The position numbers were made by a program, and so were the translations under genes. 64,000 bases of DNA from Mustelus asterias (lineage: Eukaryota): assembly GCF_964213995.1 (NCBI RefSeq), contig NC_135808.1, positions 24,614,001-24,678,000 on the forward strand. Reading direction: 5' to 3'. Shown here in pieces: positions 14,584 through 60,931 of the stretch; the stretch's first letter is position 1; each line of letters starts with the position of its first letter. The notes beneath the pieces were generated by a model. The model searched no databases. It was given only the letters and a program-made list of their open reading frames with translations, and was not told where the DNA came from.

Positions 14584-14720
14584 TTTAAATCCTATTTTGT
14601 GTCCAATCAGATTGAGGCTCAGTGTAAACAGGGAAAGACAGAAGGAGTGAGTTGAGAAGATCACCTTTCTTTGAAAAAGAGTTTCCTCCAAATGTTTCCC
14701 CCAACATGAGGGAAGCAGCA

Positions 14721-17700
14721 ATGATTGGACTGATAGAGCTGGTCCTTCTGTGTGGAGAGGTGTCTGCAGGTGAGTGATGGGGTGTGAGAGGGGCAATGCC
14801 AGGCTGGGTAATGGGGCATTAACCCTGGGTCAGTGAGTGATGGGGTGTGAGAGAGGCAATGCCAGGCTGGGTGGAGGTCTTGCTCTCGGTTTGGAATCAG
14901 TGTTTGGGGTTCATGCCCTGATCTGTGTGTGTGTGTGTGTGTGTGTGTGAGGGTGTTGGTGTTTTTAGGGTGTCTATCCTGAATTCTCTCTCTCTCTATT
15001 TCAGGCTCTCACTCTCTCCGGTATTTCTTCACGGGAATGACTCCGATCCCGGGTTTCCCGGAGTTTGTGGTTGTCGGTTCTGTGGACGGTGTCCAGTTTG
15101 TTGTGTACGACAGCGATCGGAGGGAGCTGATCCCCCGGGAGCAGTGGATGGTGGAGAGCGAGGGTCGGGCAGCCTGGGAGCGGAAGAAGATCTTCGCACA
15201 GGAGCGGGCGATGCGTTTCAAACGTGCATTTCCACTGCTCATGTCCGACACCAACCAGACAGGAGGTGAGTGCTCACTCTCCCAGCACCCGGGGATCCAG
15301 GTGGGAATGAGGAGAAACCCAGAGTGGATCAGGAACCGAGAGCCAGAGGCTGATTGGCTGCGATTGGAGATGTGACAGGAAATGTGATTGGCTGTGAATG
15401 TGTGGAAGGATTGTTTCCAGGGAGGCTGCCTCTGATTGGCTGTGTGTGAGTGGAGGAGGTGGGGGGTGGGGGGGCGAGGGGCGGGAGCAGTTGACGGTGA
15501 TTGGCTGTTAGGATGAGATTGCCCAGTGAGACTGGTTCTGATTGGCTGTTTGTGTTTCTGATCCACAGGGATCCATGTCTGCCAGATAGTGACTGGCTGT
15601 GACCTGAGCGATGATGGGACCATGAGTGGATTCAGCCAGTACGGGTGGGATGGACATGATGTTCTCAGCTTCGACAAGGATCACATGGTGTGGGTGACCC
15701 CGGTCACATGGGGGAAGAGCATCAAAAACTGGTGCAACCGGCAGACTGGCAACATTCAGCAATGGAAACATTACCTGGAGGTGGAGTGTATCGAGTGGCT
15801 GAGAAAATACCTGGAGTATGGACAGAGAGAATTGAGAGTCTGTGAGTGAGGGGGGAGTGAGAGTCGGTGAGTGAGGGGGGAGTGAGAGTCGGTGAGTGAG
15901 GGGGGGAGTGAGAGTCGGTGAGTGAGGGGGGAGTGAGAGTCGGTGAGTGAGGGGGGAGTGAGTGAGAGGGGAGTGAGAGTCGGTGAGTGAGGGGGGAGTG
16001 AGAGTCGGTGAGTGAGGGGGGGAGCGAGTGTGGGGAGAGCGAGTGTGGGGGGGGTGAGTGTGAGCGAGGGTGGGGGGAGCGAGTGTGGGTGAGGGTGGGG
16101 GGAGCGAGTGTGGGCGAGTGTGGGGGGAGCGGGTGTGGGCGAGGGTGGCGGGCGGGTGTGGGCAAGGGTGGGGGGAGCGGGTGGGGGCGAGGGTGGGGGG
16201 GCGAGGGTGGGGGGAGCGAGAGTCGGTGAGTGAGGGGGGATTGAGAGTCGGTGAGTGAGGGGGGAGTGAGAGTCGGTGAGTGAGGGGGGAGTGAGAGTCG
16301 GTGAGTGAGGGGGGAGTGAGAGTTGGTGAAGGGGGTGATGCCGGGACTCTTATCTCGAGGTTCCTGTACTGACTCCTCTTTCTTTCTCTCTCAGTTGGCC
16401 CCGTCGTGTCCTTTACCCGTCTGGGTGATTCTAACCGGCTGTCCTGTGCCGTCATCGGGTTTTACCCTCAACCCATCGAGGTGAATCTGTGGAGAAACAG
16501 AGTGGTGATTGATGAGACTCTGTCCAGTGGGATCTTACCCAATCACGACAGCACCTACCAGATCCGGAAATGGGTAGAGTTTGATCCAGAGGACCAGGCC
16601 GAATATTCCTGTCGGGTGGAACACAGCGGGATGAAGGAGACACTGGTGGTGATTTACGGTAAGACTGTTTCTCACTGTTAGAGAGGACCCAGCCTCAGAC
16701 CAGGATCACAGGAGTGAGGGTCAGTGCTGAGCTGTCAACCCAGGATATCGAGAGAGGGAAATAAATATTATTCAATGCGTTATATATCATGGTTCCACAG
16801 TGCAACATGATACAGCGGATCATTGGATATTGGGATCGCACTGGGCCTGGTGTAACATTGGACACGAGTGTCGGTCTGGGCCTGGGGTATTCTGGGATAT
16901 TGCAGTATAGTGGGGCCCAGTGTATCCTGGGATATTGCAGCCTGTCAGGGCCTGGTGAATCCTGGGATATTACAGGAGGTTGGGCACCGTGGAATATCAG
17001 AGGATGGAGAGAGCCTGGTGTTTCCAAGAAACAATGCTTTTCACTGTGTCCCAATACATGTGACAATAATAAATCATATCAAATATTACAGTAGGACAGG
17101 ACCCAGTGCATCCTGGAAGTTTGCTTCAGTCAGATTAAGATCAGTATTCAGAGAAATAATGGAATTCCTTCTATTGGAGACAATTCATGAAAATCTAGAA
17201 TCAAATACTATAACAATGAATATTCAGCATGGATTTTGAAATGGAAAATCTTGTTTTACTCCACTTAGTGAATTTTTTGAGGATGTAACAGAGGGAATAG
17301 ACAATGGAAATGTAATAGATATAATATCATATAATTTTTTTAATGTAATAGAAAAGGGGGTTCGTGATGGACTGATTGACAAGGTGAAAGCATGTGGAGT
17401 TAGGGGATGAGTGACAGAATGGATCACTCACTGACTTTGGGAGAGAAAGCAGAGAGTGTGAGTAAAGGGTGTTTCAGAGTTACAGAAAGTGTTCCACAAG
17501 GATCAGTGCTGGGATCACCGCTGTTCACAACTTACACTCCATAACTTGGATATTGGAATCAAAAATACCATTTCTTAATTTGCAGATAACACCAAATTGG
17601 GGGAATTATTTGATATTGAGGAGAAGTGTATTAAATTAATAGGACATGAATAAACTTGAACAAATAGTTGGTGAATAAAGTTCAGCACAGATAAACGTGA

Positions 17701-19702
17701 AGTATTTTTCAGTTAATGATGAATAGGGAGGGTTGAGGAACAAAGGGATCTTGATGTACAAATACACCAATCAGTAAACATAGAGTTACAGGTTAGACAA
17801 TAAACAAAATACAATCGAAAACCAGGGTTGATTTCTCGAGGGATAGAATTGTAAAGTAGGGATTTTATTGCTAAACCTGCATCAAACCTTGGTTAGACCA
17901 CATTTAAAGACCGTGTGCAGTTCCGGTCACCATTTCATACAAAGGATATAGAGTCAGGGGAGAGAGTGTCGAGAAGATTTACAGAGATTATTCCAGAAAT
18001 GAGTGGGTGGACATCTCAGGAAAGGATTCACCGGCTGGGTCTCTGCTCTCGGGAAAACAGAAGGCTGAGGGTTGATTTAATCGAGGATTTAAAATTAGGG
18101 AAGTTTTTTTTATAGAGCGGACACATCGAGAGTGTTCCTCTTGTGGGAAGAGCATATCCAGTGGCCATCAATACAAGAAACCCAATGGGGAATTCATGAG
18201 AAACCTCTTCACCCAAAGAGTGATGAGAATGTGGAGCTCGCTGCTACAGGGAGTGGCTGAACTGAACAGTATAGTTTAAGGGGAGGATAGACAAGCAAAT
18301 GAGGGAGAGGGGAATAGAGTTAAAATGGTCGAATTAGATGAGGAATAATGGGAGGAGCCTCAGGTGGAACATTAACACCAGCATCAATAGATGGGCTGAA
18401 AGGCCATTTTCTATGTTGTATATCCTGTGTTTCCTGATTCACTCTCTCTCTGATTCACTCCCACATTTCTCTTTCTTTCTCTCTGATTCACTCTCTCATT
18501 CTGTCTCTCTGATCTTTCTCTGTCTCTCATTCTCTCTCTTCCTCACTCTTAGTTGCTCATCCTCTCTCTCATTCTCTCCCACTCGCTCACATTCTATTTC
18601 ACTCTGATTCTCACTTTTCCCTCTCCCTGATTCACTCAGTCTCTCTGATTCTCTCTCTCTAACAGAACCAAAGTCTCGCTCCCAGGTTGCTGTTACTGTC
18701 GGGATTGTGGTCGGGGTCCTCGTGCTCATCGCTCTCATCATTGTGGCTGTCGTCATCTACAACAAGAAAGGTAGGAATTGGAGGGAAAAGAGCGGTGGGT
18801 GAACTGTAGTGGATCCAGGCAGTCCGGGAGGCTGGAATTGATTCGTGCCATGACTAGCCTTTCGAATCATTTCATAATGATGGATGTCAGATCCACCGGA
18901 TGACAGCTCACTGGGGGCAGGGATTCTGGGAGAGTATTCCAGGGTGGCGGTGGCTCAGGCTGTGGGTCTCAGGTTGGTGTGGGGGTGGGGAGGGGGTGGG
19001 TGGGCGGGTGGAAGAGTTGCAGGGGTTGGGATAGGGACAGTAAGGGGCTCATGATAAAGGGGGAGTGTCTGAGAATTGTGGGAAGGGCCACAAATTGGAT
19101 GAGGACTTCAGCGTATCAGTGAGGGCTCGGGTAACAGTGAGGGTCTAGGGACAGGAACCGGAGTGTGGGTCCAGGGTCAGCGTGTGAGTGAGGGTCCAGG
19201 GTCAGGGTGGGAGTGAGGGTCTCTGGTTGTGGTGGGAGTGAGGGTTCAGAGTTGTGTTGTAGGGGCTCAGTGCGAGTGAGAGTTCCAGCCTCTGTCTCTG
19301 ATTTTCTCTCAGTCTCGTCTCTCACTGAGCATTCCATGTTTTACAGGGAGAGGGAAGAGCAACTACAATCCTGCAAATAGTAAGCTGATCATCAAACATT
19401 GTCCCTGTGCAACTGTGTACATGATTGTTCATTCTGTTTCAAATATAGTGTGTGCGTGTGCGTGTGCGTGCATCGTGCGTTTCTGTGTGGGTGTGTGGGC
19501 TTCTGTGTGTCGCCGTTAGTATGGGTGTGTGAGAACCTCTTTCTCTGTGTCTGTCTGTCTATGTCTCTCTCATTCTCTCATTATCATATCCACAGTCTCT
19601 GCCTCTGTCTCTCTGATGTTGAACAATGTTTTAACACCTCTTCTTCCTTTAACAGCTTCTGATGATGGGGATTCCTCATCCAGATCCTCCACAAGTACCT
19701 GA
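14721..19702 (+). CDS. MHC class I heavy chain gene B (nonclassical-type), complete, 343 aa: join(14721-14769,15005-15265,15569-15841,16395-16658,18666-18770,19347-19379,19656-19702); alternative in-frame ATG at 14706
   Basis: All introns GT-AG and phase 1; 1032 nt open. Leader [16 protein letters not shown], alpha1 GSHSLRYF...NQTG, alpha2 with C101/C164, C1-set alpha3 (GFYP, YSCRVEH), TM, Tyr-containing tail. Confidence 0.93.
15005..15265 (+). CDS. Gene B exon 2 (alpha1)
   Basis: [87 protein letters not shown]. Confidence 0.95.
15569..15841 (+). CDS. Gene B exon 3 (alpha2)
   Basis: GIHVCQIVTGCDLSDDG...[16 protein letters not shown]...KNWCNR...YLEVECIEWLRKYLEYGQRELRV. Confidence 0.95.
15842..16330 (+). 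repeat. 25-bp G-rich minisatellite (GTGAGTGAGGGGGGAGTGAGAGTCG)n in intron 3 of gene B
   Basis: Units start at 15842, 15867 and 15892; the middle of the array is degenerate. Confidence 0.95.
16395..16658 (+). CDS. Gene B exon 4 (alpha3, Ig C1-set)
   Basis: LSCAVIGFYPQPIEVNLWR...ILPNHDSTYQIRKW...YSCRVEHSG. Confidence 0.95.
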
Positions 19703-32334: not shown

Positions 32335-33673
32335 TTCAGTCCTATTTTGTGTCCAATCAGATTGAGGCTCAGTGTAAACAGGGAAAGGCAGAAGGAGTGA
32401 GTTGAGCAAATGGCCTTTCTTTGAAAAAGAGTTTCCTCCAAATGTTTCCCCCAACATGAGGGAAGCAGCAATGATTGGACTGATAGAGCTGGTCCTTCTG
32501 TGTGGAGAGGTGTCTGCAGGTGAGTGATGGGGTGTGAGAGGGGCAATGCCAGGCTGGGTACTGGGGCATTAACCCTGGGTCAGTGAGTGATGGGGTGTGA
32601 GAGGGGCAATGCCAGGCTGGGTACTGGGACATTAACCCTGGGTCAGTGAGTGATGGGGTTTCAAAGGGGCAATGCCAGGCTGTGTGGAGGCCTTGCTCTC
32701 GGTTTGGAATCAGTGTTTTGGGGTTCATGCCCTGATCTCTGTGTGTGTGTGTGTGTGTGTGTGAGGGTGTTGGTGTTTTTAGGGTGTCTATCCTGAATTC
32801 TCTCTCTCTCTATTTCAGGCTCTCACTCTCTCCGGTATTTCCTCACGGGAATGACTCCGATCCCGGGTTTCCCGGAGTTTGTGGCTGTCGGTTATGTGGA
32901 CGGTGTCCAGTTTGTTGTGTACGTCAGCGATCGGAGGGAGCTGATCCCCCGGGAGCAGTGGATGGTGGAGAGCGAGGGGCTCGAGTCCTGGGAACAGAAG
33001 AAGAAGCTCACACAGGAAGGGGAGCGATGTCTCAAAGATAATATTCAGACCCTCATGTATCGAACCAACCAGTCGGGAGGTGAGTCTTCAAACTCCCAGC
33101 ACTCAGCCTCTTTCTCAGGATGCAGGGCGTATGGGTCAGAGTGGGAGAAACTGGGAGCGGATCAGGATCTGGGACTGGGGGCTGAGGTTGTGCATGAGCT
33201 CTGTCAGGTCTGTTGGTCAATTGAATCTGATTGTGTGTGTTTGGTGGTTTTCCCTCTAGTTGGATTGGGCCGGATTGGCTGTGTGTGTGTGTGTGGTGGC
33301 TGGACCTCCAGTGGGAACGGATCTGTTTGGGTGGGTTCATGGTGAGTGCAGCTTTTATTGGGACTGGCCCTGATTGGCAGGTTATCTTTCTAATCCACAG
33401 GGATCCACATACACCAGCTGATGACTGGCTGTGACCTGAGTGATGATGGGAATACGACTGGATTCAACCAGTATGGGTGGGACGGACTAGATTTCATCAG
33501 TTTTGATAAGGATCTTCTGGTGTGGGTGACCCCCGTCCCTTGGGGAGAGATCATCAAACAAAAGTGGGAGGGCAGCACGGGCATTAACCAGCGATGGAAA
33601 CGTTACCTGGAGGTGGAGTGTATCGAGTGGCTGAGGAAATATCTGGAGGACGGACAAAAATTACTGAGAGTCG

Positions 33674-34410
33674 GTGAGTGAGGGCGGGAGTGAGAGTCGG
33701 TGAGTGAGGGGGGAGTGAGAGTCGGTGAGTGAGGGGGGAGTGAGAGTCGGTGAGTGAGAGTCGGTGAGTGAGGGGGAAGTGAGAGTGAGGGAGGAGTGAG
33801 AGCCAGTGAGTGAGGGGGGAGTGAGAGTCGGTGAGTGAGGGGGGAGTGAGAGTCGGTGAGTGAGGGGGGACTGAGAGTCGGTGAGTGAGGGGGCACTGAG
33901 AGTCGGTGAGTGAGGGGGGACTGAGAGTCGGTGAGTGAGGGGGGAGTGAGAGTCGGTGAGTGAGGGGGGAGTGAGAGTCGGTGAGTGAGGGGGGAGTGAG
34001 AGACGGTGAGTGAGGGGGGAGTGAGAGATGGTGAGTGAGGGGGGAGTGAGAGTCGGTGAGTGAGGAGGGGAGTGAGAGTCGGTGAGTGAGGGGGGGAGTG
34101 AGAGTCGGTGAGTGAGGGGAGTGAGAATCAGTGAGTGGTGGGGAGTGAGAGTCGGTGAGTGAGGGGGGAGTGAGAGTCGGTGAGTGAGGGGGGAGTGAGA
34201 GTCGGTGAGTGAGGAGGGAGTGAGAGTCGGTGAGTGAGGAGGGAGTGAGAGTCGGTGAGTAAGGGGGGAGTGAGAGTCGGTGAGTGAGGGGGGAGTGAGA
34301 GACGGTGAGTGAGGGGGGAGTGAGAGTCGGTGAGTGAGGGGGGAGTGAGAGTCGGTGAGTGAGGGGGGAGTGAGTGTCGGTGAGTGAGGGGGGAGTGAGA
34401 GTCGGTGAAG
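33674..34410 (+). repeat. 25-bp splice-donor minisatellite in intron 3 of gene C
   Basis: Regular tandem units filling almost all of the 801-bp intron. Confidence 0.95.
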
Positions 34411-36221
34411 GGGGTGATGCCGGGACTCTCTATCTCGAGGTTCCTGTACTGACTCCTCTTTCTTTCTCTCTCAGTTGCCCCCGTCGTGTCCTTTACCCGT
34501 CTGGGTGATTCTAACCGGCTGCCCTGTGTCGTCACCGGGTTTTACCCTCAAGCCATCGAGGTGAATCTGTGGAGAGATGGAGTGATGATTGCTGAGACTC
34601 TGTTTAGTGGGATCTTACCCAATGAAGACAGCACCTCCAGATCTGAAAATGGATCGAGTTTGATCCAGAGGACCAGGCCGAGTATTCCTGTCGGGTGGAA
34701 CACAGCGGGATGAAGGAGACACTGGTGGTGATTTACGGTAAGACTGTTTCTCACTGTTAGAGAGGACCCAGCCTCAGACCAGGATCACAGGAGTGAGGGT
34801 CAGTGCTGAGCTGTCAGCTGAGGACAGGGCTGTGAGGCCCAGTGATTAGCGCTGCTGCCTCACAGCGCCAGGGATCCGGGTTCAATTCCAGCCCCGGGTC
34901 GCTGTCTGTGTGGAGTTTGCACATTCTCCCCGTGCCTGCATGGGTTTCCTCTCGGTTCTCCGGTTCCTCTCGCAGTCCAAAGATGTGCAGGTTCGGTAGA
35001 GTGGCCATGCTAAATTGCCTGTTAGTGTCAGGGGGATTAGCAGGGTAAACACATGGGTCACGTGGATAGAGCCTGGGTGGGATTGTTGTTGGTGCAGGCT
35101 CGATGGGCTGAATGGCATCTTTCTTTCTGTACTGAATGGATTCTATATTTCTCTGATTCTCTGACAGCCTGAGGCCCAGGACACAGAGCGAGGGAAAGAT
35201 ATCTTAATCTTCAATACATTATATACCATGGTGCTACCATTCGGGGACAGGAATTGGGATTACTGGGATTTTACTGTGCCACAGGCCCCATTGTCTCCTG
35301 AGATATTATCGTACGAATGGGCCCAGTTTATCCTGGGATATTACAATATGGCAGGACCCAGTGAATCCTGTGTTACAGGCGGTGGGGGGTTGTCAGTATA
35401 AACTGCCCTGATTTCCCCCCTCACGACTCGTCCACTAACAGTAAGTTTTTAAAAAAATTCTGAGCTCCCTCTTTATAAATGGTGGCATCTTTTCCCCAAC
35501 CCATAAATTTGGAGTGTTCCTATTCTCTGTGAATAACTTGCACAGTAAACCTGAGGTAAGATGAAAATACACACATGAGAAAAGTTTCACAAAATTGACC
35601 CCTCTGCACTCACACAGTGAACGGGGAAGGAAGAGGGTTCAGGGCCCGATCACAATAAAAAAAATGCGAGGGTTTTACATGTGTCCAGAATGAGCAGTCT
35701 AATGGAAGGTTTCTTTCAAGGGGAGGTTGATGGATTAGAGGGTGGTCCACCTGCAGTGACTTTAACAAGGCCCACGATGTGGACCTCTTAGAATACTCGC
35801 TCCCAAATTAAGCCAGTAATGGATTGTCCAATCAGGGAGCCCTGTATGTGTACATAATGTGGAGTGTCAGCGTTACTCGCACTCTGGGTTTAAAGTTTGA
35901 AGTTTATTTATTAGTGGTACAAGGAGGCTTACATTAACACTGCAATGAAGTTACTGTGAAAATCTCCTGGTCACCACATTCCGGCACCTGTTCGGGTATC
36001 CTGAGGGAGAATTTAGCATTACTAATGCACCTAACCAGCACAACCTTTGGACTGTGGGAGGAAACCCACACAGACACGGGGAGAATGTGCAAACTCCACA
36101 CAGACAGTGACCCAAGCGGTAATTGAACCCAGGTCCCTGGTGCTGTTAGGCAGCAGTGCTAACCACTGTGCCACCAGTATGAGGAAGTACCTGTCTGAGA
36201 GTTGCTTACTTTGTTGCTTAC

Positions 36222-37403
36222 TCTTGCCTTTGACAAGGTACTGCATGGTAGGTTATTGCTTAAGGTTAAATCTCACGGGATCTGGGGTGAGGTATCTAAA
36301 TGGATACAAAATTGGCTTCTTGACAGAAGCCAGAGTGTGGTTGTAGAGAATTGTTTTTCAAACTGGAGGCCTGTGACCAGCGGTGTGCCTCAGGGATCAG
36401 TGCTGTGTCCACTGTTATTTGTCACTTATATTAATGATTTGGATGAGAATAGAGGAGGCATGGTTAGTGAGTTTGCAGATGACATGAAGATTGGTGGCAT
36501 AGTGGACAGTGAAGAAAGTTATCTCCAATTGCAACGGGATCTTGATCAATTGGGCCAGTGGGCTGACGAATGGCAGATGGAGTTTAATTTAGACAAATGC
36601 AAGGTGATGCATTTTGGTAGATTGAACCAGGGCAGGACTTACTCAGTTAATGGTAGGGCATTGGGGAGAGTTACAGAATAAAGAGATCTCGGGGTACATG
36701 TTCATAGCTCCTTGAAAGTGGAGTCACAGGTGGACAGAGTGGTGAAGGAGGCATTCGGCATGCTTGGTTTCATCGGTCAGAACATTGAATACAGGAGTTG
36801 GAATGTCTTGTTGAAGTTGTACAAGACATTGGTAAGGCCACACTTGGAATACTGTCTGCAATTCTGGTCACCCTATTATAGAAAGGATATTATTAAATTA
36901 GAAAGCGTGCAGAAAAGATTTACTAGGATGCTACTGGAACTTGATGGATTGAGTTATAAGGAGAGTTTGGATAGACTGGGATTTTTTTCTCTGGAGCGTC
37001 GGAGGCTGAGGGGTGATCTTATAGAGGTCTATAAAATAATGAGGGGCACAGATCAGCTCGATAGTCAATACCTTTTCCCAGAGGTAGGGGAGTCTAAAAC
37101 TAGAGGGCATAGGTTTAAGGTGAGAGGGGAGAGATACAAAAGTGTCCAGAGAGGCAATTTTTTCTCACAGAGGGTGGTGAGTGTCTGGAACAAGCTGCCA
37201 GAGGTAGTATAGAGGCGGGTACAATTTTGTCTTTTAAAAAGCATTCAGATAGTTACATAGGTACGATGGGTATAGAGGGATATGGGCCAAATGCGGGCAA
37301 TTGGGATTAGCTTCGGGGTTTAAAAAAAAAAATGGGCGGCATGGACAAGTTGGGCCGAAGGGCCTGTTTCCATGCTGTAAAGCTCTATGACTCTATGACG
37401 CTA
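36222..37403 (+). mobile_element. CR1 LINE, 5'-truncated, same family as 4225-5137
   Basis: ORFs 36202-36681 and 36712-37212; (CTCTATGA)n tail. Confidence 0.93.
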
Positions 37404-37419
37404 TGTTAATGAATCTAAA

Positions 37420-40320
37420 TTTGGTGAAGGGACACCAGCCTTGTGGGAGTTATTTCAGAGACGAACATGATGGAACTTGTAAAATTTGGCCTAAGTTGGG
37501 GTCAGCCATTTTTCTGCATCATTCCTTTGTTTGGTAGACGAGACTCGTTCAACCCTGCTGTCGAGAACTGGGCCCAAGATGTGGATCACATGCATTATTT
37601 TTTCGGGCAAATGACATTATGGCAGATGAAAAACAAAGGGTGCTGTGAATGCTGTGGTGCTTGAGCGTTTGCTGTCATTCGGAGTTAAACTTTCCCTGAG
37701 GCCCCAGATACTAAAACCTTTCAAGAATTGCCTGAGGTCGTTGGAGAATGCTACAACCCCAAGCCACCTCTAATTTTGAAACAGTATTGTTTATACTAAA
37801 CAATCTGTTATGGGATTCGTAACTAGGTTAAGACAACTGGCGAAAGCATGTGAATTTATTTTAACTCTTAACAAGATGCTTAGAGACTGTCTGGTGTGCG
37901 GTATTAATAATGTGACTGTTCAAAAATGCCTATTAGCTGAAGCACAAGTGGACTTCAAACAGGTGCTACAGCAGGTTTTACCATTGGAAAATGCTGCATG
38001 TGGAGCATATGAGTTGCAAGCCATCCCGAAGTGGACACCCGCGCCAGTCCGACTGAGTTCAGGGACCACTATTTGAGAGCAGGCAATTACATAGCCTCCC
38101 TCAGGAAGTATCCAGATACACATAACTCCAGGTCTGCACAAAGCAAAGCCAAACTTCGACCAAACAGTCACAAGTCCTACCTGATAGCAACAGCAAAGGA
38201 GTCCTACAGGACTGAGATTTAGTAAAGCAACTTGTAGTCCGGTATCCAGGAGTGTTCACACCCTGGGAAGATCCACCTACATCTGATTTAGTGCAATTAA
38301 ATTGCATATCGATGTCCAAATCAGATCAAATCAAGATTAACGTATGGTTAAGTGGACATCTGGTACTAATGGAAGTTGATATCGATGCGGCAGTATCAGT
38401 GTTCAGAGAATCAGCGTTCCATAAAATTCACTATGGACTCTAGCGCTTATTGTTACTGAAGACCTCAGCAAGATAGGGAACCTGTATCGGGGAACCTTTC
38501 TGAATTTTGAGTGGAACCCCTGACCCTGTCTCCTATGAAAGGCAGCTGGTTCAGTTACCAATGATTGTAGTGAGGGCATGGGGAAGCCTAATGGTGTGAA
38601 ATTGGTTGCAAGAGATCCACCTTGGCTCAACATCTTCAGCCAGAGAATGGCTGCCTTAGTGAAGTCCTGCCGAAGTACGCTAAAGCTTTCCAGGAAGGTC
38701 TTGGGACTATCAAAGGAGCCAAGGCGACCTTACCTGTTGACGAGGAAGTGATTCCACAATTTTGCAAGGCCCGCCCAGCGCCATTTGACTTACGAGTAAA
38801 AGTTGAAGCAGAAATCCAAAGACTGGAACGTGAAGGGATCATCAAACCAGTCCAATTTGTGGAATGGGCAGCACCAGTCTTACCAATTTTGAAGCCAGGT
38901 GGATCATTCCATCTTTGCGGGGATCCGAAACAAACGGGAAACTGTTTCTTGCAGCTGGTTGGAAGGATGACTCTTGTTTGTGAAACTTGACATGAATCAC
39001 GCTTACTTACAATTACAACTAGATGACGATTCCCAGAGATATTCAGCAATTCATACTCAGAAGGGCCCTGAGCGATCCACTTGTCTGCCATTTGGGGTAT
39101 AGTCACCCTGTTCAACCTTCCAGCGAACGATGGAGAACATTTTGCAAAGCCTCCCTCAGGTTGCTATATATCTGGATGAAGTCCTCTTAACTGGTAAAAA
39201 AAAAGAAACACTTAAAGAACCTTGAGGAAGTTCTCAGTCAATTTTTCAAGGCAGGTGTACGCCTACGAAGGGAACAAATGTGTAATCCAGGTTCCCCCAA
39301 GAGAAAGCTCCATCTCAATAGCAAAGGTACAAAGAAGAAAGAAGTTCCAGGCAGAAGAATCAACAGAGAAAGCCCAAATATTCCGGAAGACACAAAAACT
39401 TTGTTAATAAGTGGGAATTGTATTCACCTGAACAGCATTCCATTTGAATCATTTTATTCAGGTTGTTAATAGTTTAGTTAACTTGTTCACTGTCAATTCG
39501 ATAAATAAGTTGTTCCTTGTTGATTTTTGAGAGTGTCAGGGAGTTATTTTGATTGAACCAGTAAAAGTTGCTGAAGAGCAGATTGTACCACTTCACACTC
39601 ACTTTTACAGATTATGGCGAGTTGCTCCTCTTTGAGTGGTGAGGCCTTAGTTCTCAGAGGGGGGATCAACCTCGGCTTCATAACAATAACCTATTTGGGA
39701 AATTAAGCCCATTCGTGCCTCCATCCTGGCTCCATTACACCAACTACTAAAAAAAGATCAGCCTTGAGAGTCGTCTTCCAGTCAATCCTTGGCTTTCAAT
39801 AAAGTAAAGCAACAACTTTCCTCTTTTAATGTACTGGCGCATTATGATCCCAGGAAAGAACGACCACTGACCCGTGACACATCCTTGTATGGCTTCATGA
39901 CGGCTTTGGCACATAGGTGGCCAAACAGAGTGGAATTGCTTATGCTCCCAGGACCTTGACTATTGCAAAAAAGCCTATGTCGAAAAAGAAGGGTTGGCGG
40001 TGATATTAGGAGTGAAAAGGTTCCACCAGCGCCATTATGGGTAGAAATTTGTCATTAAGACACAGACCACAAGCCACTCCTCGGACTGTTTAAAGAGGAC
40101 AAGGCAGTGTTGCCCATAACATCAGCCCAATCCAGCAGTGGGCTTTATTACTGACCGCCTACAATTACCAATTGGAACACTGTCCAGGAGGCCTTGAGCT
40201 GACTATCATTAGCAGATATCCGATCGGTGGTATCCCCAGTGGAAGAGTCTGTAATGACAATGATTTTTTTTGGAGACTTTCCCAGTGCCACTAAATAAGA
40301 TTTGACCGTGGACTTAAAAA
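37420..40320 (+). mobile_element. Degraded Ty3/Gypsy gag-pol remnant in intron 4 of gene C, with an LTR-like insert at ~39295-39686
   Basis: gag (FVTRLRQLAKACEF, LRDCLVCGI), protease-like (MEVDIDAAVS), RT (WAAPVLPILKP) and RNase H remnants. Confidence 0.82.
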
Positions 40321-42955
40321 GGCCCAGTCTTTGCTAAATTTAAAACATTCATTTGTGGGACATGGATGTTGCTGACTGGCCAGCATTTATTGCCCACCCC
40401 TAGTTGTCCTTGTCCGGAGGGCATTTGAGAGTCAACCACATTGCTGTGGATCTGAAGTGACAAGTAGGCCAGACCAGGTAAGGACGGCAGATTTTTTTCC
40501 CTAAAGGACATTATTCAACCCAGATGATTTTTTTTTTGACAATTGACAGTGATAGTGCCGGGGATTGTCAGAGGATACAACAGGATATCGATAGGTAGAT
40601 TGGAGACTTGGGCACAAAAATGGGAGATGGAGTTTAATCTGGATTGATGTGAGGTGATGCATTTTGGAGGTTCAAATGTAGGTGTGAATTATACGTAAAT
40701 AGCAGAACTCTTCGGTACATTAACATACAGAGGGATCTGGGTGTGCAGGTCCACAGTTACCTAAAAGTGGCAACACAAGTGGCCAAGGTGATTAAGAAAT
40801 CATTTGGCATGCTTGCCTTTATCAGCTGGGGCATTGAGTCCAAGAGTTGGGAAATCATGTTGCAGCCATATAAAACCTTGATTAGGCCGTATTTGGAGTA
40901 TTTTGTGCTGTTCTGGTCACCACCCTATCAGAAGGACGTAGAAGCTTTGGAGAGAGTGCAAGGAAGGTTCACCAGGAGTGACAGAAGGTGGGAAATGGTG
41001 TTCCGCAGTAATCAACGCTGGAATCACCACTGTTCACACTTTACACTCACTTATTTGGACATTGGAATCGAAACACAATTTCTCAATTTGCTAAGGTCAC
41101 CAAATTGGGACGAATTATTCGATATGCTACAAAATAATAGAACATTAATAAACTTGTAGAATGGGCAAATAATTGGTGAATGGAGTTCAGCACAGATAAA
41201 CATGAGGTAGTTTTCTATTAGGGGTGAATAGAGAGGTCACTTATTACTTAGGAGGTGCCGGGCTGGATGGGGTTGAGGAACAAAGGGATTTCGGTTTACG
41301 TTAAACCAATCCGCAACAGGTTAGGCAAAGCCATGAACAAAATAAATGGAAAATCAGTCTTTATTTCTAGAGGGATAGAATTGTAAAGCACGGAAGTTAT
41401 TGCTAAACTGTTATCAAATCATGATTAGACCACATTTACAGACTGTGTGCAGTTCCAGTCACCATTTTACAGAAGGGTTTTTACTCACAGGAGAGGACAT
41501 AGAGAAGATTTACAGAGATGATTCAAGGAATGAGTGGGTGGAGATCTCAGTGAAGGATTGACTGGCTGGGTCTCTGCTCTCAGGAAAACAGAGGGCTGAG
41601 GGTTGACCTAATCGAAGATTTAAAATTAGGAAAGGTTTTCATAGACTGGACACAGAAAGAGTGTTTCCTCTTGTGGGAAGAATGTAACTCGGGGTCATCA
41701 ATACAAGATGGTCACCAAGAAACACAATAGGGAATTCAAGAGAAACTTATTCACTCAAAGAGTGATGTGAATGTGGAGCTCGCTGCCACAGGGAGTGCTT
41801 GAAGTGAACAGTATAGTTTAAGGGGAATGAATGAGGAGGAAATATGTAGTTAAGATGGTCAGTTTCGATGAGGGAAGATGGGAGGAGGATCAAATGGAGC
41901 ATAAACACCAGCATCAACTAGATGGGCCAAATGGCCAGGTTCTGAGTCAGGTATTCTATGTTTTCTGATTGTCTCTCTCGCTCTCTAATTCACTCTCTCT
42001 CCATCATTCTCAGGTTCTCTCTCCTCTCTTCCTCTCACATTCTCTCTCTCTCTCTGATTCTCACTTTTCCCTCTCCCTGATTCACTCAGTCTCTCTGATT
42101 CTCTCTCTCTAACAGAACCAAAGTCTCGCTCCCAGGTTGCTGTTACTGTCGGGATTGTGGTCGGGGTCCTCATGCTCATCGCTCTCATCATTATGGCTGT
42201 CGTCATCTACAACAAGAAAGGTAGGAATTGGAGGGAAAAGAGCAGCTCCTTACTGGGGGGAGGGATTGTGGGAGAGTATTCCAGGGTGGGGGGGCTCAGG
42301 CTGTGGGTCTCAGGTTGGTGTGGGGGTCACAGAGTGGATGGAAGAGCCCAGGGTTGGGATAGGGAGGATAAGGGGCTCATGATAAAAGGGAAGAGTCTGA
42401 GAATTGTGGGAAGGGTCTCAGATTGAATGACGAGTTTAGGGTATCAGTGAGGGTCCCGGGTCAGTGCGGGAGTGAGGGTCTTCAGTCAGTGTGGGAGTGA
42501 GGGTCTTCAGTCAGTGCGAGAGTGAGGGTCCCCGGTCAGAGGGGAGTGAGGGTCCTGGGTCAGAGGGGGGAGTGAGGGTCCTAGGTCAGAGGCGGAGTGA
42601 GGGTCCTGGCGAAAGAGGGGGAAGTGAGGGTCCCAGGTCAGAAGAGGAATGAGGGTCCCGGGTCACAGGGGGAGTGAGGGTCCCGGTTCACTGTGGGAGT
42701 GAGGGTCCTGGTCAGGGTGAGAGTGAGGATTTCAGAATTGTGTTGTCGGGGCTCAGTACGAGCGAGAGTTCCAGCCTCTGTCTCTGATTTTCTCTCAGTC
42801 TCGTCACTCACTGAGCATTCCATGTTTTACAGGGAGAGGGAAGAGTGACTACAATCCTGCAAATAGTAAGCTGATCATCAAATATCGTCTCTGCGTAACT
42901 GTGTGAATCACCATTGATTCTGTGTCATATAGTGTGTGTGTGTCTTTCTCTCGCA

Positions 42956-51322: not shown

Positions 51323-54300
51323 ATGATTGGACTGATAGAGCTGGTCCTTCTGTGTGGAGAGGTGTCTGCAGGTGAGTGATGGGGTGTGAGAGGGGCAATG
51401 CCAGGCTGGGTACTGGGGCATTAACCCTGGGTCAGTGAGTGATGGGGTGCGAGAGGGGCAATGTCAAGCTCGGTGGAGCTCTTGCTCTCAGTTTAGAATT
51501 CACATTTTGGGATTCATAGCCTGGTGTTTCACTATGTGTGACAGTGGGTGTTTTGGGGTTCATGGCTTGATGTCTCTCTCTGTGGTGTTGATATTTTGGG
51601 TTTGTACCTCAATTTCTGTGTGTGTGTGTGTGTATGTATGTTTTGGTGTTTGGGGGTTCACACCCTGATGTCTCTCTCTCTGGGTGTTGGTGTTTTGGGG
51701 TTCACACCCTGATGTCTCTCTCTCTCTGGGTGTTGGTGTTTTGGGGTTCACACCCTGATGTTTCTCTCTCTCTCTGGGTGTTGGTGTTTTGTGTTTCTTA
51801 CCCTGAGGTCTCTCTCTCTCTGGGTGTCGGTAGGGTTCATACCCTGATGTATCTCTCTCTGTGGGTTGACGTGCCTTCAAGGAAGGTTTTTATATCATGT
51901 TTCTTGTGAAGGGAATGTTTTAAACTCAGCACTGAGCACCGTGCTGATTTGTTTGCAACCTGCAGTCTACCTGATGAGAACGCAGTAGCATAATTAATCC
52001 TAGATAATGGGTTGTTTTGTTTATCGTCTGGGTTGTCCCCTGGGGTTTCAGAGTCGGGTTTGATTCGATTGATTTACAAGAGGAAGTCATCTGCTAATGG
52101 AAGAAGCTATTCTTACAGAGAAACAAAGCAGGCAGTTATCTGCTTCGGTCTGTCATCAGCAAGAAGTGTTATTCTCTCTCACTCTCTCTCTTTTAGGATT
52201 ATAGTTTGGGACCTGTTTGAAAATAGGTCTCTCTCCATATTTGTTCTGGGGCTTAAGGACTAGCAGTCGCTGACCAGCACATAAGCCTGTTGTTTGCTAA
52301 CTGATGTTAAAGATGAGTTTACGTCTCTGAGGAATATTGCTTAAATTGGGACTAATACAGATAGACAAGCAGCAAAGAATTTGATCTTGTCTTGTTTCAG
52401 TATTTAAGTTGGTAAGATATACATCAATTCTTTTTGTTCTTGTTTAAACTGTTTTGTTCATTTTTTTAAAGCTTCCCATTGGGTCAATAGAATCACAGCT
52501 GGAGTGATTCACTTCATCCTCACACTCATGCCAAAATAAAAATAAAAATGTGGGTCTAGTCTAACTTCATAATATAACTTGGAGTTTGAGGTCTGGTCCC
52601 TAAAAAAATTTAGGGAGTGACCGAGATCAGAGTTGAGAATTCCTTGTTCAGCTTAGGATTACTGAACTCAAAGTCAGTGAGTGTTGAGTTTTTGTGTGTT
52701 CTCTTGAGGTGAATGCCGTATGGAATAAATGGTTCTTTTACTGGCTGAGGTTTTCCTGGGTGTGGAAGAAGTGACTCAGGATGGTTTACAAAAAGTGGAT
52801 AAAGCAAAACTTCTGGCATTGCCAAACAAGTTGCAGCTTTCAGTGATAGCTCGGCACTTAAAATTGCCAGAAACATTGGAATTGGCTTGAATTCAACTCC
52901 AAATCTCACAGCTTGAATTAGAGGCAAAGGAAAGAAAACACAATTGAAACTGTTGAAATTGCAATTAAAAGCAAATGAAAAAGAGTTGAGATAGTTTGAA
53001 TTGTAATTTAAGGAAAAAGAAAGCGAGAGAGAATAGCCCTGGCAGAGCAAAACAAAGGGAAAAAGAATTAGAACTTCAGGAAGTGAAAAGGCAATTTGAA
53101 CTTGAAATGTCTGAAAGGCAAATGTGTAAAACTGCGCGTGTATCAGGAAAAGGACAGATGATTTTGAATCAGTTTGTGAATCATATGTTGGCTTTCAACA
53201 TCAGTTTCAGCCTGTGAGAGACAGAGAAATCCTCAGGTGGTAAAGGAGATGCCATTGGAGATCGTAAAGATAGTTTCCCTCAGGTAAATTCTTTCCACTA
53301 ACTGAACTTCAACTTCTTTATCTTTACTTTGTGATTTCCCCTCCTGGCCAACCTGTGGCTTTGTAAACTTGTTATCCCGCAGTCAGGAAAAAAACCCCAG
53401 GATATGCTTCCTGCATCACCTCAGCTGTCTGATTTTCCACTGGCTTTTCAACCACAGTAACCATCACTCCCACCTGTGATCCAGCTTTATCATTACCCAG
53501 GATAAACTGTATTCCTGGAAAAGATCATTTCCCTATCACTCCAACCCCCACCACCACTTTCGCCAGAATCTCCAACCTTACACTTTATAATGGAACACTA
53601 CTCTTTTCACAAGTAATTTCACTTATTTCCACATTTTTCCGGCAATACTCCTTCCAAACTACATATCTCCTCATCTTTCACCATCAAAGATTGACTTGAT
53701 CCTGTACCTTTTAAAATCTGAGCTTCTTTACCTCCTCCTCCTGGTACACATAAGTAAACCTTACCCACATAAGTAAATTATTTAAAACGACTAAGCACTT
53801 GCTTATCAACCAATCCCTGACCAGGCTGGACACTTTTTCACCTGTTCAGCTTCAACTATGGTTTCCTTTATCAGTTAACAGACCCCAGATGGTTGAGCAA
53901 GAACATAAACTGTTGGAGGATGGAGGTCACTATTTTTAGTTCAGAAAGTTGTCAGAATTACAGCAGAAGGATATAGAAATAAAGCAATTGTATCAGAAAG
54001 CATATACAGAAGAAGAATCTGAGTGTATACCAGAGTGATACTACATTACAAATGATGAATTGATGAGATGCTGGAGATCATTACATATTCAGGCAGATGC
54101 ATCAAAGTTATTCCGGGAAGTTGTGGATAGCTTAGGAGTAAAGCAATTTAAATCAACTCTGTACCATCCAGAATCGCAGGGAATATTGAAACGCGAGCGT
54201 CAAATTTTAAAGGCCATGTTGAGGACCTCCAGGCAAGATTATCCAGAGGATTAGGATAAAGGATGCACCAAATGAATGAACTAAATTCAGTCTATTTGAA

Positions 54301-57300
54301 TTAAGTTTTGTCATGAGATAAGTGGACCACTTAAATTCATCAAGGAAAAGTTGGTGAGTCAGCATTCTGGGACTATGTTGGACTATGTGTCAAACTTTAT
54401 GGAGAGATTAACTAGGGGTGGGAAGTTCATGAGACTGCAATTAAAGGTGGCACAGCATGTGAAGAAAAAAAGTGGACAAGAAAAGTTCCTCGTTTTGCTC
54501 GCAGGGATAAGGTGTTAGCATTATTAGCAGTGCTAGGTGAACATTTAACAGCTAGGTTTAGTGGGCCTTATCAAATAGGGTGGCATGGTGGCACAGTCGT
54601 TAGCACTGCTGCCTCACAATGTCAGGAACCGGAGTTCAATTCCAGCCTCAGGTGACTGTCTGAATGGAGTTTGCACTTTTTCCCGTGTCTGCGTGAGTTT
54701 CCTCTGGGTGCTCCGGTTTCCTCCCACAGTCCAAAGGTGTACAAGAGAGGTTGATTGTCCATAATAGCTTGTCCCCTTCGTGTCAGGGGGATTAGTGGGG
54801 TCGATGCAATGATGAGGTCGAGGTGGGATTGTTGTTGGTGCAGGCTCGATGGGCCAAGTGGCCTCCTTCTGCACTATAGGGCTTCAATGAAATTGAAAGA
54901 AAATTGAATAAGATGATTTTTAAAAATTCATTCATAGGACATGGGCATGGCTGCTGGCCAGCATTTATTGCCCATACCTAGTTGCCCTTGAGAAGGTGAT
55001 AGTGAGCTGCCTTCTTGAATCGCTGCAGTCTATGTGCTGTAGGTTGACCCACACTGCCATTAGAGAGGCAATTCCAGGATTTTGACACAGCGACTGTGAA
55101 GGAATGGCGATACATTTCCAAGTCACCATGGTGAGTAGCTTGGAGGGGAACTTGCAGGTGGTGGTGTTCCCATGTAACTGCTGCCCTTGTCCTTCGAGAT
55201 GGATGTGGTTGTGGGTTTGGAAGGTGCTGTCAAGGATATTTGGTGAATTGTTGCAGTGCATCTTGTAGATAGTACACACTATTGCTATTGAGCGTCAGTG
55301 GTGGAGAGAGTGGATGTTTGTGGATATGGTACCAATCAAGTGGGCTGCTCTGTCCAGGATGGTGTCAAGCTTCTTGAGTGTTGCTGGACCTCATCCCATC
55401 CAGGCAAGTGGGGAGTATTCCATCATACTCCTGATTTCTGCCTTGTAGATGGTGGGCAGACTTTGGGGAATCAAGAGGTGAGTTACTCGTCACAGTATTC
55501 CCAGCCTCTCACCGGCTCTTGTGTTTATGTGGCGAGTCCAGTTGAGTTTCTAGTCAATAGTAATGCCAAGGATGTTGACAGTGGGGGATTCAGTAATGGT
55601 AACACCATTGAATGTCAAGGGGTGGTTGTTAGAGTGTCTCTTATTCATGATGATAATTGCCTGACATTTGTGTTGCTCGAATGTTACTTGCCACTTGTCA
55701 GCCGAAGCTTGGACATTGTCCAGATCTTGTTGCATTTGAACATGGACTGCTTCAGTATATGTGGAGTCATGAGTGGTACTGAAAATTGTGCAATCGTCAG
55801 CAAACATCCCCACTTCTGACCTGATGATGGGGGGAAGATCATTGATGAAGGAGTTGAAGATGGTTGGGCTGACGACACTACCCCAAGGGATTCATAAGAA
55901 CATAAGAACCAGGAGCAGGAGTAGGCATCTGGCCACTCGAGCCTGCTCTGCCATTCAATAAGATCATGGGTGATCTTCTCGTAGACTCAGCTCCACTTAG
56001 CCGCCAGCTCACCATAACCCTTAATTCCTTTACTGTTCAAAAATGTATCTATCCTTGCCTTAAAAACATTCAATGAGGTAGCCTCAACTGCTTCACTGAG
56101 CAGGGAATTCCACAGATTCAAACTCATTGTGTGAAGAAGTTCCTCCTCAATTCAGTCCGAAATCTGCTTCCCCTTATTTTGAGGCTATGCCCCCTCATTC
56201 TTGTTTCACCCGCCAGTGGAAAAAACTTCCCTGCTTCTATCTTATCTATTCCCTTCATAATCTTATATGTTTCCTTCAGATCTCCCCTCATTCTTCTGAA
56301 TTCCAATGAGTATAGCCCCAGTCTACTCAGTCTCTCCTCAAAAGCCAACCCTCTCAACTCTGCAATCAACCCTAGTGAATCTCCTCTGCAACCCCTCCAG
56401 TGCCAATATATCCTTTCTCAAGTCAGGAGACCAAAACTGTACACAGTACTCCAGGTGTGGCCTCACCAGCACCTTATACAGCTGCAACATCACCTCGCTG
56501 TTTTTCAACTCCAATAAAGGACAACATTCCATTTGCCTTATTAATTACCTGCTCCACCTACAAACCAACTCCTTGAAATTCTGCACAAGGACACCCAGGT
56601 CCCTCTGCACAGCAGCATGCTACAATTTTTTACCATTTAAATAATAGTCCATTTTGCTGTTATTCCTACCAAAATGGATGACTTCCCATTTACCAACACT
56701 ATACTCCATCTGCCAAACCCTCGCCCACTCACTTAGCCTATCTATATCCCTTTGCAGACTTTCAGCGTCCTCTGCACACTTTGCTCTGCCACTCATCTTA
56801 GTGTCATCTGTGAATTTTGACACACTACACTTAGTCCCCAACTCCAAATCATCTCTGTAAATTGTAAACAATTGCGGTCCCAACACTGAACCATGAGGCA
56901 CACCACTAGTCACTGATCGCCAACCAGAAAAACACCAATTTACCCTCACTCTTTGCTTTCTGTTAGTTAACCAATCCTCTATCCATGCTAGTACATTACC
57001 CGTAATACCGTGCACCTTTATCTTGTGTAGCAGTCTTTGGTGGGTCACCTTGTCAAATGCCTTCTGGAAATCCAGATACACCACGTCCACAGGTTCCCCA
57101 TTGTTCATTCCTGCACAGATGTCCTGGAGCTGAGATGACTGACCCTCCACAATCACATTCCTATGTGCCAGGTATGACTCCAACCAGCGGAGAGTTTGCC
57201 ACCTGATACCCATTGATTTCAGTTTCGCTAGAGTTCCTTGATGCCACACTTGGCCGAATGTGGCCTTGATATCAAGGGCTGTCACTTTCACCTCACCTCT

Positions 57301-59112
57301 GGAATTCAGCTATTTTGTCCATGTTTGAACCAAGGCTGTAATGAGGTCAGGAGCTGAGTGACCCTGGTGAAACCCAAACTGGGCGTCACTGAGCAGGTTA
57401 TCATTAAGCAGGTGCTGCTTGATAGTACCCGTGGAGAATTATATGACAAGAACGTTGGATCGAAGGAAATCTCACAGAGTGTTTCCTGAGAATATACTCA
57501 AGCAATATTTTGATCGGGAAGGAAAGCAGAAGGGGGATGCATTAGTTATGACAATGCAGAGTGAAGAAATAAGTCCAGATGATTCTGCATTTGACATTCT
57601 TCAAATTAGATTGGATAATGTGGAAGTAATCGGAAATTGAAATAAACGATTGAGTTACCTTCTGGAGGAAAATCAAAATGGCCTGAAAGAGTTACTACAA
57701 CCACATGGAGAGATATGTGGGAATAAACTGGGAAGGACTAAAATAATTATGCACAACGTAGATGTAAGAAATGCTGTTCCAATTAAGCAATATCTGTACA
57801 AGCTTAACCCTCCAAAGTTGGCATAGGTTCAAAAGGAGATTGAAAGCATATTTAAAAATTACATAATTGAAGTGAGTTGGAGCGAGTGCAGCTCACCCGT
57901 AGTGAGGGTTCCAAAATGAGATGACACCCAACAATTCTGTGTGGACTATAGGAAAGTTAATGCAGTTACAAAATAAGATTCATATCCCATTCCTTTCTTG
58001 GGAGACTGCATTCAGAAGGTGGGACAAGTGACTTTTATTTCCAAACTTGACTTACTAAAAGGATACTGGCGGGTACCTTTATCCGAAAGGGCAAAGGAGA
58101 TTTTGGCTTTCATGACAAAAAATGGTCAGTACCAGTTTAAAATCATGCCATTTGAAATGAAAAATGCACGAGCCACATTTCAAACATTAACTAATAAGGT
58201 CATTTCTGGACTACCTAATTGTGCTGTGTACATAAACAAACTGGTGGTTTTCAGACAGATGTGGAAGGAACATTTGGAGCACCGAGCGGAATTGTTCAAT
58301 TGGCTTCAGGATGCAGGCTTGGTGGTAAACTTGGCTAAGAACGAGTTTACAAAAACCAAAGTCACATTCATAGTCCATACAATTAGACATGGATGGAAGG
58401 CCCTACGGTCGGTGAAAACAAAGGTTATTGGGGAGTGCCCAATACTGCCGGTGAAAAGTGAAGTACTGCATTCTTGGACCTGGATGGTTTTTATAGGAAT
58501 TTTGTGCCAAACATTTGCATTATGGTTGCTGCACTGACTGACTTGCTGAAAAAACATGCAAAATTTCAGTGGACGGTGAATGTCAGAGGGCATTTGGCAG
58601 CCTGAATAATGTGTTAACCACTGCACCTGTGTTGGCAAGAACAAATTATGCAAAACCATTCAAGATGGCCATTGATGCGAGTGATGTGGCTGTTCTATTA
58701 CAAGAAGATGACAAAAGGATATAAAGACCAATTGGGTACGTTTTCTGGAAAACTAAATAACCATCAAAAGAGATTCAACCATTGAGAAAAGAAACATTGA
58801 GTTTGGTGTTGGCATTGCAACATTTTAACGTTTATGTTGTCAGCAATTCATCTGAGACAGTTATTTACACTGATCATAATCTATTGACGTCTCTGGAGAA
58901 ATTTAGAGATCAAAGTGAAAGGCTCTTTAGATGGAGTTTATTATTACAGCCATTTTATATGAGAATTACAATGTGGCAGAAAGTGAGAATGTGATTGCTG
59001 ATGCTTCATCAACAATTTCATGAAAGAGGAAGGAATATTCAATGTCGGAAGAGAATGACTGTACTGGACAATAGAACTATTATACTTGCATGCATTGATT
59101 TACTAGAATGTG

Positions 59113-59151
<39 letters not shown>

Positions 59152-60931
59152 ACTAATAGTGTGAAACTTGAAGTTATGAAAAATGAAGCCATTTTTTATT
59201 GCTGTTTTTTTTAAGGGGGAGGTGTGAGGATACTGTGCCTTTAAGAAATGTATCTATATCATGTTTCTTGTGAAGGGATTGTTTTCAACTTCAGCTCTGA
59301 TTACAGTGCCGATTTGCCCACAAACAGCAGCCCACATGCTGAGAGTGCAGAAGCATAATTTATCCCAGATAATGTTTCTTTTTGCTTTTATCTGAGCTGT
59401 TTTGTTTATTTTTTTGGGTTGTCCCTGGGGTTTCAGAGTAAGGTTTAATTCGGTTGATTGACAAGAGGAAGTCATATGCTGATGGGAAGAGCTAAGCTTA
59501 CAGGAAGACAAGCAGACAGTTGTCTGCCTGGACCTGCCAGAAGCATTATTCTCTCTCTCTTTCTCTAAAGACTGTAGTTTGGGACCTGCTCGAAAATAGG
59601 TCTCTCTCCAGAGGTGTTTTGGAGGCTGGAGATACCCAGCTCAGATACCCACATGTAAGGCTGTTTGCTGACTGATTTTCAGGAGGTGTTTATGTCTATG
59701 AGGAATATTGCTTAAATTGGAACAATTAGAAATAATCCAGCAGTTAAGAGTTGTATCTTGTCACATGTAAGAATTTCAGTTGGTAAAAGTTGAGGCTATT
59801 TCTTTTTGTTATAGTTAAACTGTACTGTTAAATAAAGTTTGTTTTGACAAAAGCTTCCTAGTGGGTCATTGGAATGACACCTCGAGTGAAACACTTTATC
59901 CTCACACGAATGTCAAAGTCAAAAAAGAGAGTTGGGGTCTGGTCTAAATTCATAACATGGAGTTTCTAATCTGGTGCCCAACGGTGGATGCTGGTGTTTT
60001 GTGTTCATACCTTGATCTCTCTCTGTTTTTCAGGTTCTCACTCTCTCCGGATTTCCGTCACGGGAATGACTCCGATCCCGGGTTTCCCGGAGTTTGTGCT
60101 TGTCGGTTATGTGGATGATCTCCGGGTTGTTGTGTACGACAGCGATCGGAAGGAGCTGATCCCCCAGGAGCAGAGGATGGTGGAGATCGACGGACATGAG
60201 GCTTGGGAACAGAAGAAGATTCTCGCACAAGAGCTGGGGATGATTGTCAAATTGTCTTTTCCGGTCTTCATTTCTCTGTCCCAGCAGACAGGAAGTGAGT
60301 CCTCACTTTCCCACCACTCGGGGGTGCAGGTGGGAAGAAACCAAGAATGGATCAGGAACTGGGAGCCAGAGGCTGATTGGCTACGATTGGATATGTGACA
60401 GCAAATTTGATTGGCGATCAATGAGTGGAGGGAATGTATCCAAGAGAGACTGGCTCGGATTGGCTGTGTGTGGAGGACATGAGATCCACTTAGTGTAACT
60501 GCCGCTGATTGGCTTTCTATGTGGTGGGAGGTGCCTCGCTTGATTTGATTGGCTCTTGATAGAATGGGTCTGGCTTCTGAGTGGAACTAGCTTGGATTGG
60601 CTGTGGGGGTGGGATCTCACATTGGGACTGACTCTAATTGGCTGTTTGTGATCCACAGGAATCCATGTTTTACAGATGATGACTGGCTGCAATCTGAGGG
60701 ATGATGGGACCACGAGTGCATTCAACCGGATTGGGTGGAATGGACAGGATGTGCTCAGCTTCGACAAGGATCACATGGTGTGGGTGACCCCAGTGACCTG
60801 GGGAGAGATCATCAAAAACAATCTTGACAGGGATACTGCCCAGAATGAGCGATTCAAACAATTACTGGAGGTGGACTGTATTGAGTGGCTGAGGAAATCC
60901 CTCGAGTTCGGACAGAGTGAACTGACAGCTG
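51323..60931 (+). CDS. MHC class I gene D (highly divergent nonclassical-type), 5' part: exons 51323-51371, 60034-60294, 60659-60931; alpha3 onward not in the window
   Basis: Leader identical to B and C; alpha1 261 nt and alpha2 273 nt, open, GT-AG, with C101/C164 retained. Intactness of the rest is unknown. Confidence 0.85.
51640..51860. repeat. ~44-bp tandem repeat (TCTCTCTGGGTGTTGGTGTTTTGGGGTTCACACCCTGATG) in intron 1 of gene D
   Basis: About 5 visible copies; the unit resumes after the LTR element at ~59985. Confidence 0.85.
51860..59983 (+). mobile_element. Decayed full-length Gypsy LTR retrotransposon (Gmr1-like INT-before-RT order) in intron 1 of gene D; LTRs ~51860-52605 and 59223-59983
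   Basis: Two diverged ~750-bp direct repeats, PPT AAGGGGGAGG at 59213-59222, integrase (YHPESQG, ~54160) upstream of RT (LDLLKGYW, ~58050) and RNase H ([13 protein letters not shown]). Confidence 0.88.
54927..57425 (-). mobile_element. LINE (L2/CR1-group) 54927-55890 plus 57105-57425, interrupted by a CR1 at 55893-57104, all nested in the Gypsy element
   Basis: [15 protein letters not shown] and MFADDCTIF in the outer element; DFQKAFDKV and FTDDTK in the inner one. Confidence 0.85.
60034..60294 (+). CDS. Gene D exon 2 (alpha1)
   Basis: [87 protein letters not shown]. Confidence 0.93.
60659..60931 (+). CDS. Gene D exon 3 (alpha2)
   Basis: [17 protein letters not shown]...[16 protein letters not shown]...IKNNLDR...[26 protein letters not shown]. 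Confidence 0.93.

Follow-up and report, generated by a model that had tools for sequence, protein, structure and literature searches.

In the 64,000-nt stretch of Mustelus asterias DNA analysed here (the window), shark class I genes are arranged in tandem on the + strand; four of them (A–D) were recognized, gene A being represented by its 3' end only. Two paralogues of UBA type, B (14706..19381) and C (32456..42867), served as comparison genes for gene D, the subject of this study; both lie on the + strand. In paralogue B the leader, α1, α2, α3, transmembrane (TM) and first tail exons are open. Paralogue C has a frameshift and a stop codon in its α3 exon (34474–34736) and is likely a pseudogene or the source of a truncated product; its first tail exon is closely followed by a run of 319 N (42956–43274). 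The leader exons of B (14706–14769), C (32456–32519) and D (51308–51371) are 100% identical at the DNA level, compared with differences of 16–28% in the α1/α2 exons and of about one third in the 200 nt upstream, which suggests gene conversion or a strong constraint on the leader.

Gene D starts with this 64-nt leader exon, which has an intact ATG and a GT donor, and continues on the + strand with an intron 1 of 8.66 kb, the α1 exon (60034..60294, 261 nt), a GT–AG intron 2 (60295..60658), the α2 exon (60659..60931, 273 nt) and an intron 3 that runs from 60932 to the end of the window (64000), the α3 exon lying beyond it. A preliminary description of the locus had stated that the exon lengths and splice sites of gene D are kept and that its reading frame has no stops despite an old retroelement in intron 1. 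Both statements were borne out for the α1 and α2 exons, which have the same lengths as in B and C and the expected AG/GT ends. Intron 3 contains an expanded 25-bp repeat whose unit carries a splice-donor consensus (55 donor-like sites in gene D, 27 in C and 11 in B), as well as a 615-nt fold-back (92%) at 62494–63104; these repeats and the fold-back could be a source of cryptic donors.

The insertion in intron 1 is a decayed LTR retroelement on the + strand (51860..59981, approximate boundaries) with nested insertions. Its LTRs, at about 51860–52603 and 59225–59981, enclose reverse transcriptase and RNase H remnants with Pfam matches to RVT_1 and RNase H, and differ by a p-distance of 0.24 over 705 sites (K2P 0.29). 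Had gene D evolved neutrally since this insertion, the chance of finding it stop-free would be about 0.08, and frameshift-free about 0.02, in a rough estimate that ignores gene conversion.

Gene D matches the Pfam MHC_I family, to which a C1-set match is added by the α3 domain of RefSeq models with an identical α1α2. Structure modelling, one of the checks proposed in the preliminary description, gave a class I fold (AlphaFold, pLDDT 89.5), a result that concerns the fold only, and a fold search with this model, which is blind to groove type, returned classical nurse-shark UAA (PDB 6LUP) as the best match, followed by MR1. In a tree of the α1α2 region built from 83 of 102 aligned domains, mostly of sharks and rays (19 rows were left out), gene D and two sister types, the second gene of P0001 (P0001b) and P0003, form a 100/100 clade with a stem of 0.38, hereafter the D type. 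This clade is nested in a 100/98 clade with the horn-shark sequence AAC60348 (P0009), which we take to be a UBA, in part from its similarity. Gene D is 61% identical to AAC60348 in α1α2 and shares 74 of 88 positions with it in α3; counted by eye, its α3 also agrees with the labelled Gici UBA at about 70 of 88 positions (about 80%), vs 50 of 88 for UAA. The UBA label of the nurse-shark sequence AAC60347 is that of the supplement of PMC10751288. Given the tree clade with AAC60348 and the α3 likeness to labelled UBA, gene D is thus, judged from its sequence, a UBA, a member of the multicopy nonclassical class I family of sharks. Sections of PMC10751288 and PMC12562908 describe UBA as a multicopy class Ib family derived from UAA, and the former also gives c4 and rxrb as flanks of the UBA cluster. 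The present locus is likewise multicopy, with four genes in 64 kb and dozens of RefSeq models on one contig, and gene D has in common with shark UBA this tandem arrangement together with residues A59, K63 and I143. Two other identities were considered and rejected, that of a classical UAA allele, as gene D has Q86 and no peptide-end anchor, and that of a UFA, UGA or CD1 orthologue, as it is 31% identical to UGA, whose structure has been released (PDB 9CH4), vs 52% to UAA, and the UFA, UGA and CD1 rows are distant by eye.

Residues were numbered after UAA 6LUP, and HLA-A2 as aligned in the supplement of PMC10751288 served for a visual check of the numbering. Every residue named in the preliminary description is present in gene D, including I7, A59, K63, L70 and L84, encoded with Q86 by the α1 exon, and I116, N119, V123, L147, L159 and S171, encoded with D163 by the α2 exon, as well as V9, R51, L66, I73, V74, V80, F81, H93, L95, Q96, M97, G120, D122, I143, N146 and F156. 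The C101–C164 pair, in the α2 exon, is also kept. The peptide anchors had been described as gone, and indeed 0/9 peptide-end anchors remain in gene D, vs 9/9 in UAA; the glycan site at N86 is lost as well, through Q86. An α3 sequon is present in the gene D type (P0011, residue 276) and in P0003 (residue 248) despite the loss of the N86 sequon; it also occurs in P0020 and is therefore not clade-specific.

A comparison with 53 other UBA domains, 48 of which cover position 7, distinguishes changes of the whole family from those of the sub-clade. Y59 (53/53), T143 (47/53), K146 (44/53) and W147 (26/53) are lost across the other UBA, whereas Y7 (47/48), R84 (41/53), N86 (53/53), Y159 (41/53) and Y171 (46/53) are retained by most of them and lost in the D-type clade (P0003 does not cover position 7), whose marks are I7, L84, Q86, L159, the loss of Y171, and N119. 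K63 had been put forward as a possible polar spot for the ligand. We rejected it as a D-specific ligand site, since 51/53 other UBA carry it, 50/53 together with an acidic residue at 163. Because of this co-occurrence, and because a Lys64–Glu156 pair roofs the A' pocket of chicken YF1 (as stated in a section of PMC12212280), K63 more likely acts, by analogy, as a helix-to-helix roof than as a ligand spot.

The hydropathy of the groove also sets the D type apart. Averaged over 36 positions that we take to line the groove, it reaches 1.82 in gene D, 1.85 in P0001b and 1.46 in P0003. Among the rest of the 83 domains, the zebra-shark protein P0051 has 1.36 and all others, including the other Mustelus UBA, 0.99 or less. 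The hydrophobic lining claimed for gene D is thus confirmed, the D-type groove being the most apolar of the 83 domains. In a wider ranking of 216 class I domains, D-type sequences hold ranks 1, 2, 3 and 6, rank 3 being a truncated duplicate of gene D and two other proteins (1.59 and 1.52) ranking in between; classical-like domains (n = 68) have a mean of -0.08 and a maximum of 0.77. Relative to 19 other Mustelus UBA domains, hydropathy went up at 16 groove sites and down at one, vs 14 up and 11 down outside the groove, a directional shift of the groove (Fisher p = 0.013). In neutral simulations starting from B or C, a value of 1.82 was reached in 0/12,000 cases and 1.46 in 4/12,000. The comparison of B with D gives a dN/dS of about 1.9 for the groove (0.61/0.31) and of about 0.40 outside it (0.14/0.36). 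As the groove value is also raised between B and C (1.2, vs 0.32 outside), these substitution patterns suggest that groove diversification is general in UBA and that it is its direction that is special in gene D. The D type hence combines the two features sought in a lipid presenter, an apolar groove lining and the loss of the peptide anchors.

The α1α2 of gene D is found, identical, in four RefSeq models under the Mustelus asterias label (P0002 and P0010–P0012), which allowed the downstream exons to be checked as proposed in the preliminary description. The α3 is open in 4/4 of these models and a TM is present in 3/4, as read from models that share the α1α2 of gene D and not at the locus in the window. 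The leader and the usual cytoplasmic exon are absent from 4/4; three models start inside the RNase H remnant of the retroelement (58684–58735) and one within α1. Going by the genomic sequence, the three N-termini in the remnant are false, the real leader exon being located 7.3 kb farther upstream.

Four public runs (X3, X5, X6 and X11) were compared with gene D at 86% likeness. In X3, another sample of the same study under the Mustelus asterias label, two contigs equal the α2 of gene D exactly, and we accordingly rejected an assembly artefact; both contigs listed over position 60174 encode Trp at position 51 (among the 32 of 129 pieces listed). X6 (organism C) yielded a 639-nt contig about 93% identical to gene D across α1, intron 2 and α2, and about 11 letters at one loose contig end match the LTR insertion, which is only a hint that gene D and organism C have this insertion in common. 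X5 (organism B) contains pieces that resemble gene D, and one of these lacks 1 nt of α1. In X11 (organism D), presumed to be RNA, a 94% contig keeps the Ile7 codon and joins a leader-like end (28/30 letters), and a second contig skips intron 2 and carries the clade-specific Ser90. The D-type contigs of X11 have F8, Q32 and W51 and therefore represent sister types rather than gene D. Going by this single run, at least one further organism appears to splice a D-type gene, and the spliced leader–α1–α2 contigs under this third other organism label indicate that the D-type sub-clade is probably expressed. At the protein level, searches that were word-limited or clustered at 50%, and so constitute a weak test, turned up D-type sequences under no label other than Mustelus asterias.

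At 13 sites gene D itself is unlike either sister type, and it has private changes W51R, Q32R, R48Q, F8S, Q115R, S90R and F171S. W51 is kept in 208/216 class I domains, and F8, Q32, R48 and Q115 are common to HLA-A2, UAA and most UBA. The changes at these last four conserved sites (S8, R32 and Q48, within the α1 exon with R51, and R115, within the α2 exon) had escaped the preliminary description, and several of them presumably lie on the β2m face. Its claim that the β2m contacts are kept therefore stands in part: H93, Q96, G120 and D122 are there, but W51, F8, Q32, R48 and Q115 are altered only in gene D. Of the two substitutions it had mentioned as possible signs of decay, W51R is private to gene D, whereas D119N was rejected as such a sign, being common to the D-type clade and present in 4/53 other UBA. 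Outside the groove, synonymous to non-synonymous codon changes number 7:21 on the D branch, 4:7 on B and 7:10 on C; the numbers are small, and the excess on the D branch would fit relaxed constraint as well as remodelling. The odds are about even that gene D is a copy which arose by recent amplification within a functional sub-clade and has since partly decayed. Better candidates for a working molecule are the sister types, P0003 and the second gene of P0001.

A hydrophobic ligand is our leading reading because the groove is apolar and free of anchors, has shifted in one direction and is shared by the sub-clade. We give an even chance to the proposal, drawn from sequence and from analogy, that the D-type UBA is a β2m-paired presenter of lipids or lipopeptides comparable to YF1. 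The preliminary description had proposed lipid-type presentation from a classical-like scaffold; the properties of the groove agree with the first part, but the scaffold is that of a nonclassical UBA. Gene D is one of several near-identical D-type copies among the tandem nonclassical UBA genes. Along the stem of the sub-clade, the remaining peptide-end tyrosines and R84 were lost together with the N86 glycan, and the aliphatic lining was gained. The D-type heavy chain would pair with β2m, and absence of the N86 glycan may lead to loading outside the classical peptide-loading complex. An acyl chain could then occupy an enlarged A pocket (I7, V9, A59, L66, L70 and L159) roofed by K63–D163 and W167, and a single-chain lipid or lipopeptide might be shown to innate-like T or NK-type receptors.

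HLA-F and Qa-1 provide parallels for the binding of hydrophobic or long, free-ended peptides, and the D type might bind hydrophobic or unusually long free-ended peptides as well, in the way of Xenopus XNC4. Gene D keeps the class I fold, the domain lengths and the C101–C164 pair, polar T99, N114, S77 and R155 remain on the floor and walls of its groove, and the F pocket of XNC4 is hydrophobic, with long peptides reportedly bound (PMC12562908, in a section on this molecule). However, such peptides are hard to reconcile with the loss of all nine end anchors and of N86, and the apolar shift spans both the A and F ends; we hold this reading to be fairly unlikely. It is also unlikely, in our opinion, that the apolar residues fill and shut the groove, leaving an empty, receptor-binding class Ib molecule that acts, for example, as a stress or self ligand. 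Closed-groove class I-like molecules are known, such as RAET/ULBP (according to part of PMC6769792), and the sister types have bulky F74, F77, F116 and F171, but the replacement of Tyr by the smaller Ile, Ala, Leu or Ser at positions 7, 59, 159 and 171 should leave space, and the groove residues vary among the three types, as they do in ligand binders.

The directional groove shift, the frames kept open despite an old insertion, the spliced contigs of X11 and the existence of three divergent types, in each of which α1α2 and α3 are open, all argue against a decay of the whole D-type branch. On that reading the branch would be a by-product of birth and death among the UBA genes, and the intron 1 retroelement would have silenced or crippled it. 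Points in favour of such decay are the broken state of the neighbouring gene C, the many non-groove replacements on the D branch, the lack of leader and tail in the RefSeq models and the frameshifted D-like contig of X5. We consider it quite unlikely.

Presentation of a lipid or lipopeptide may not be confined to the D type. P0051/P0251, under the Stegostoma tigrinum label, combine the hydropathy of 1.36 with 1/9 anchors, keep N86 and possess both leader and tail. The position of P0051 in a clade other than the D type suggests, within the tree, a second, independent apolar shift. It is thus possible, if tentative, that peptide-type grooves in the UBA array are repeatedly remodelled for lipids or lipopeptides, as would have happened once in the D-type branch and, in a separate event, in P0051. 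P0051/P0251 are the better-preserved candidates for a test. If this repeated switch is real, sharks would have recent YF1-like lipid presenters besides the ancient UFA and UGA, and the steps from peptide to lipid binding would be preserved in close paralogues. Even with the D type alone, a lipid ligand would mean that lipid-type presentation arose recently and independently within an expanded class Ib family of sharks, with paralogues 60–87% identical providing a way to test which few groove changes switch a molecule from peptide to lipid binding. No description of the D-type sub-clade was found in the literature searched, which covered part of the work on shark class Ib, and the sub-clade may already have been described.

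Among known molecules, classical shark UAA (PDB 6LUP) is the best structural and sequence match to gene D in the PDB and has the same exon plan, with an α1α2 identity of 50%, but it has 9/9 anchors and N86. Shark UEA, in work ascribed to Almeida et al. 2021, is said to lack the nine anchors and to have a hydrophobic groove. Both UEA and gene D belong to expanded nonclassical families; UEA has been described as a lineage of its own that is older and located in another cluster. The MHC-linked, CD1-like class Ib molecules UFA and UGA of sharks bind lipids according to a personal communication mentioned in PMC12562908 and unpublished data mentioned in PMC10751288. They are ancient single or low-copy lineages, whereas gene D is nested in UBA, so that any lipid binding by gene D would be independent of theirs. 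The nearest functional parallel is chicken YF1*7.1 (MHC-Y; PDB 3P73, 9EB2–9EB6), which, as set out in portions of PMC2998441 and PMC12212280, binds lipids and N-myristoylated peptides. Current views are left standing by our results, as lipid-binding shark class Ib molecules (UFA/UGA) and a lipid binder on a classical scaffold (YF1) have already been reported. YF1 and gene D have in common a classical-type fold and a hydrophobic groove, but YF1 is not orthologous to gene D and keeps Tyr7, so that there is no match at the level of residues, and its ligand binding and structure are known, whereas gene D is known here from its sequence and a model.
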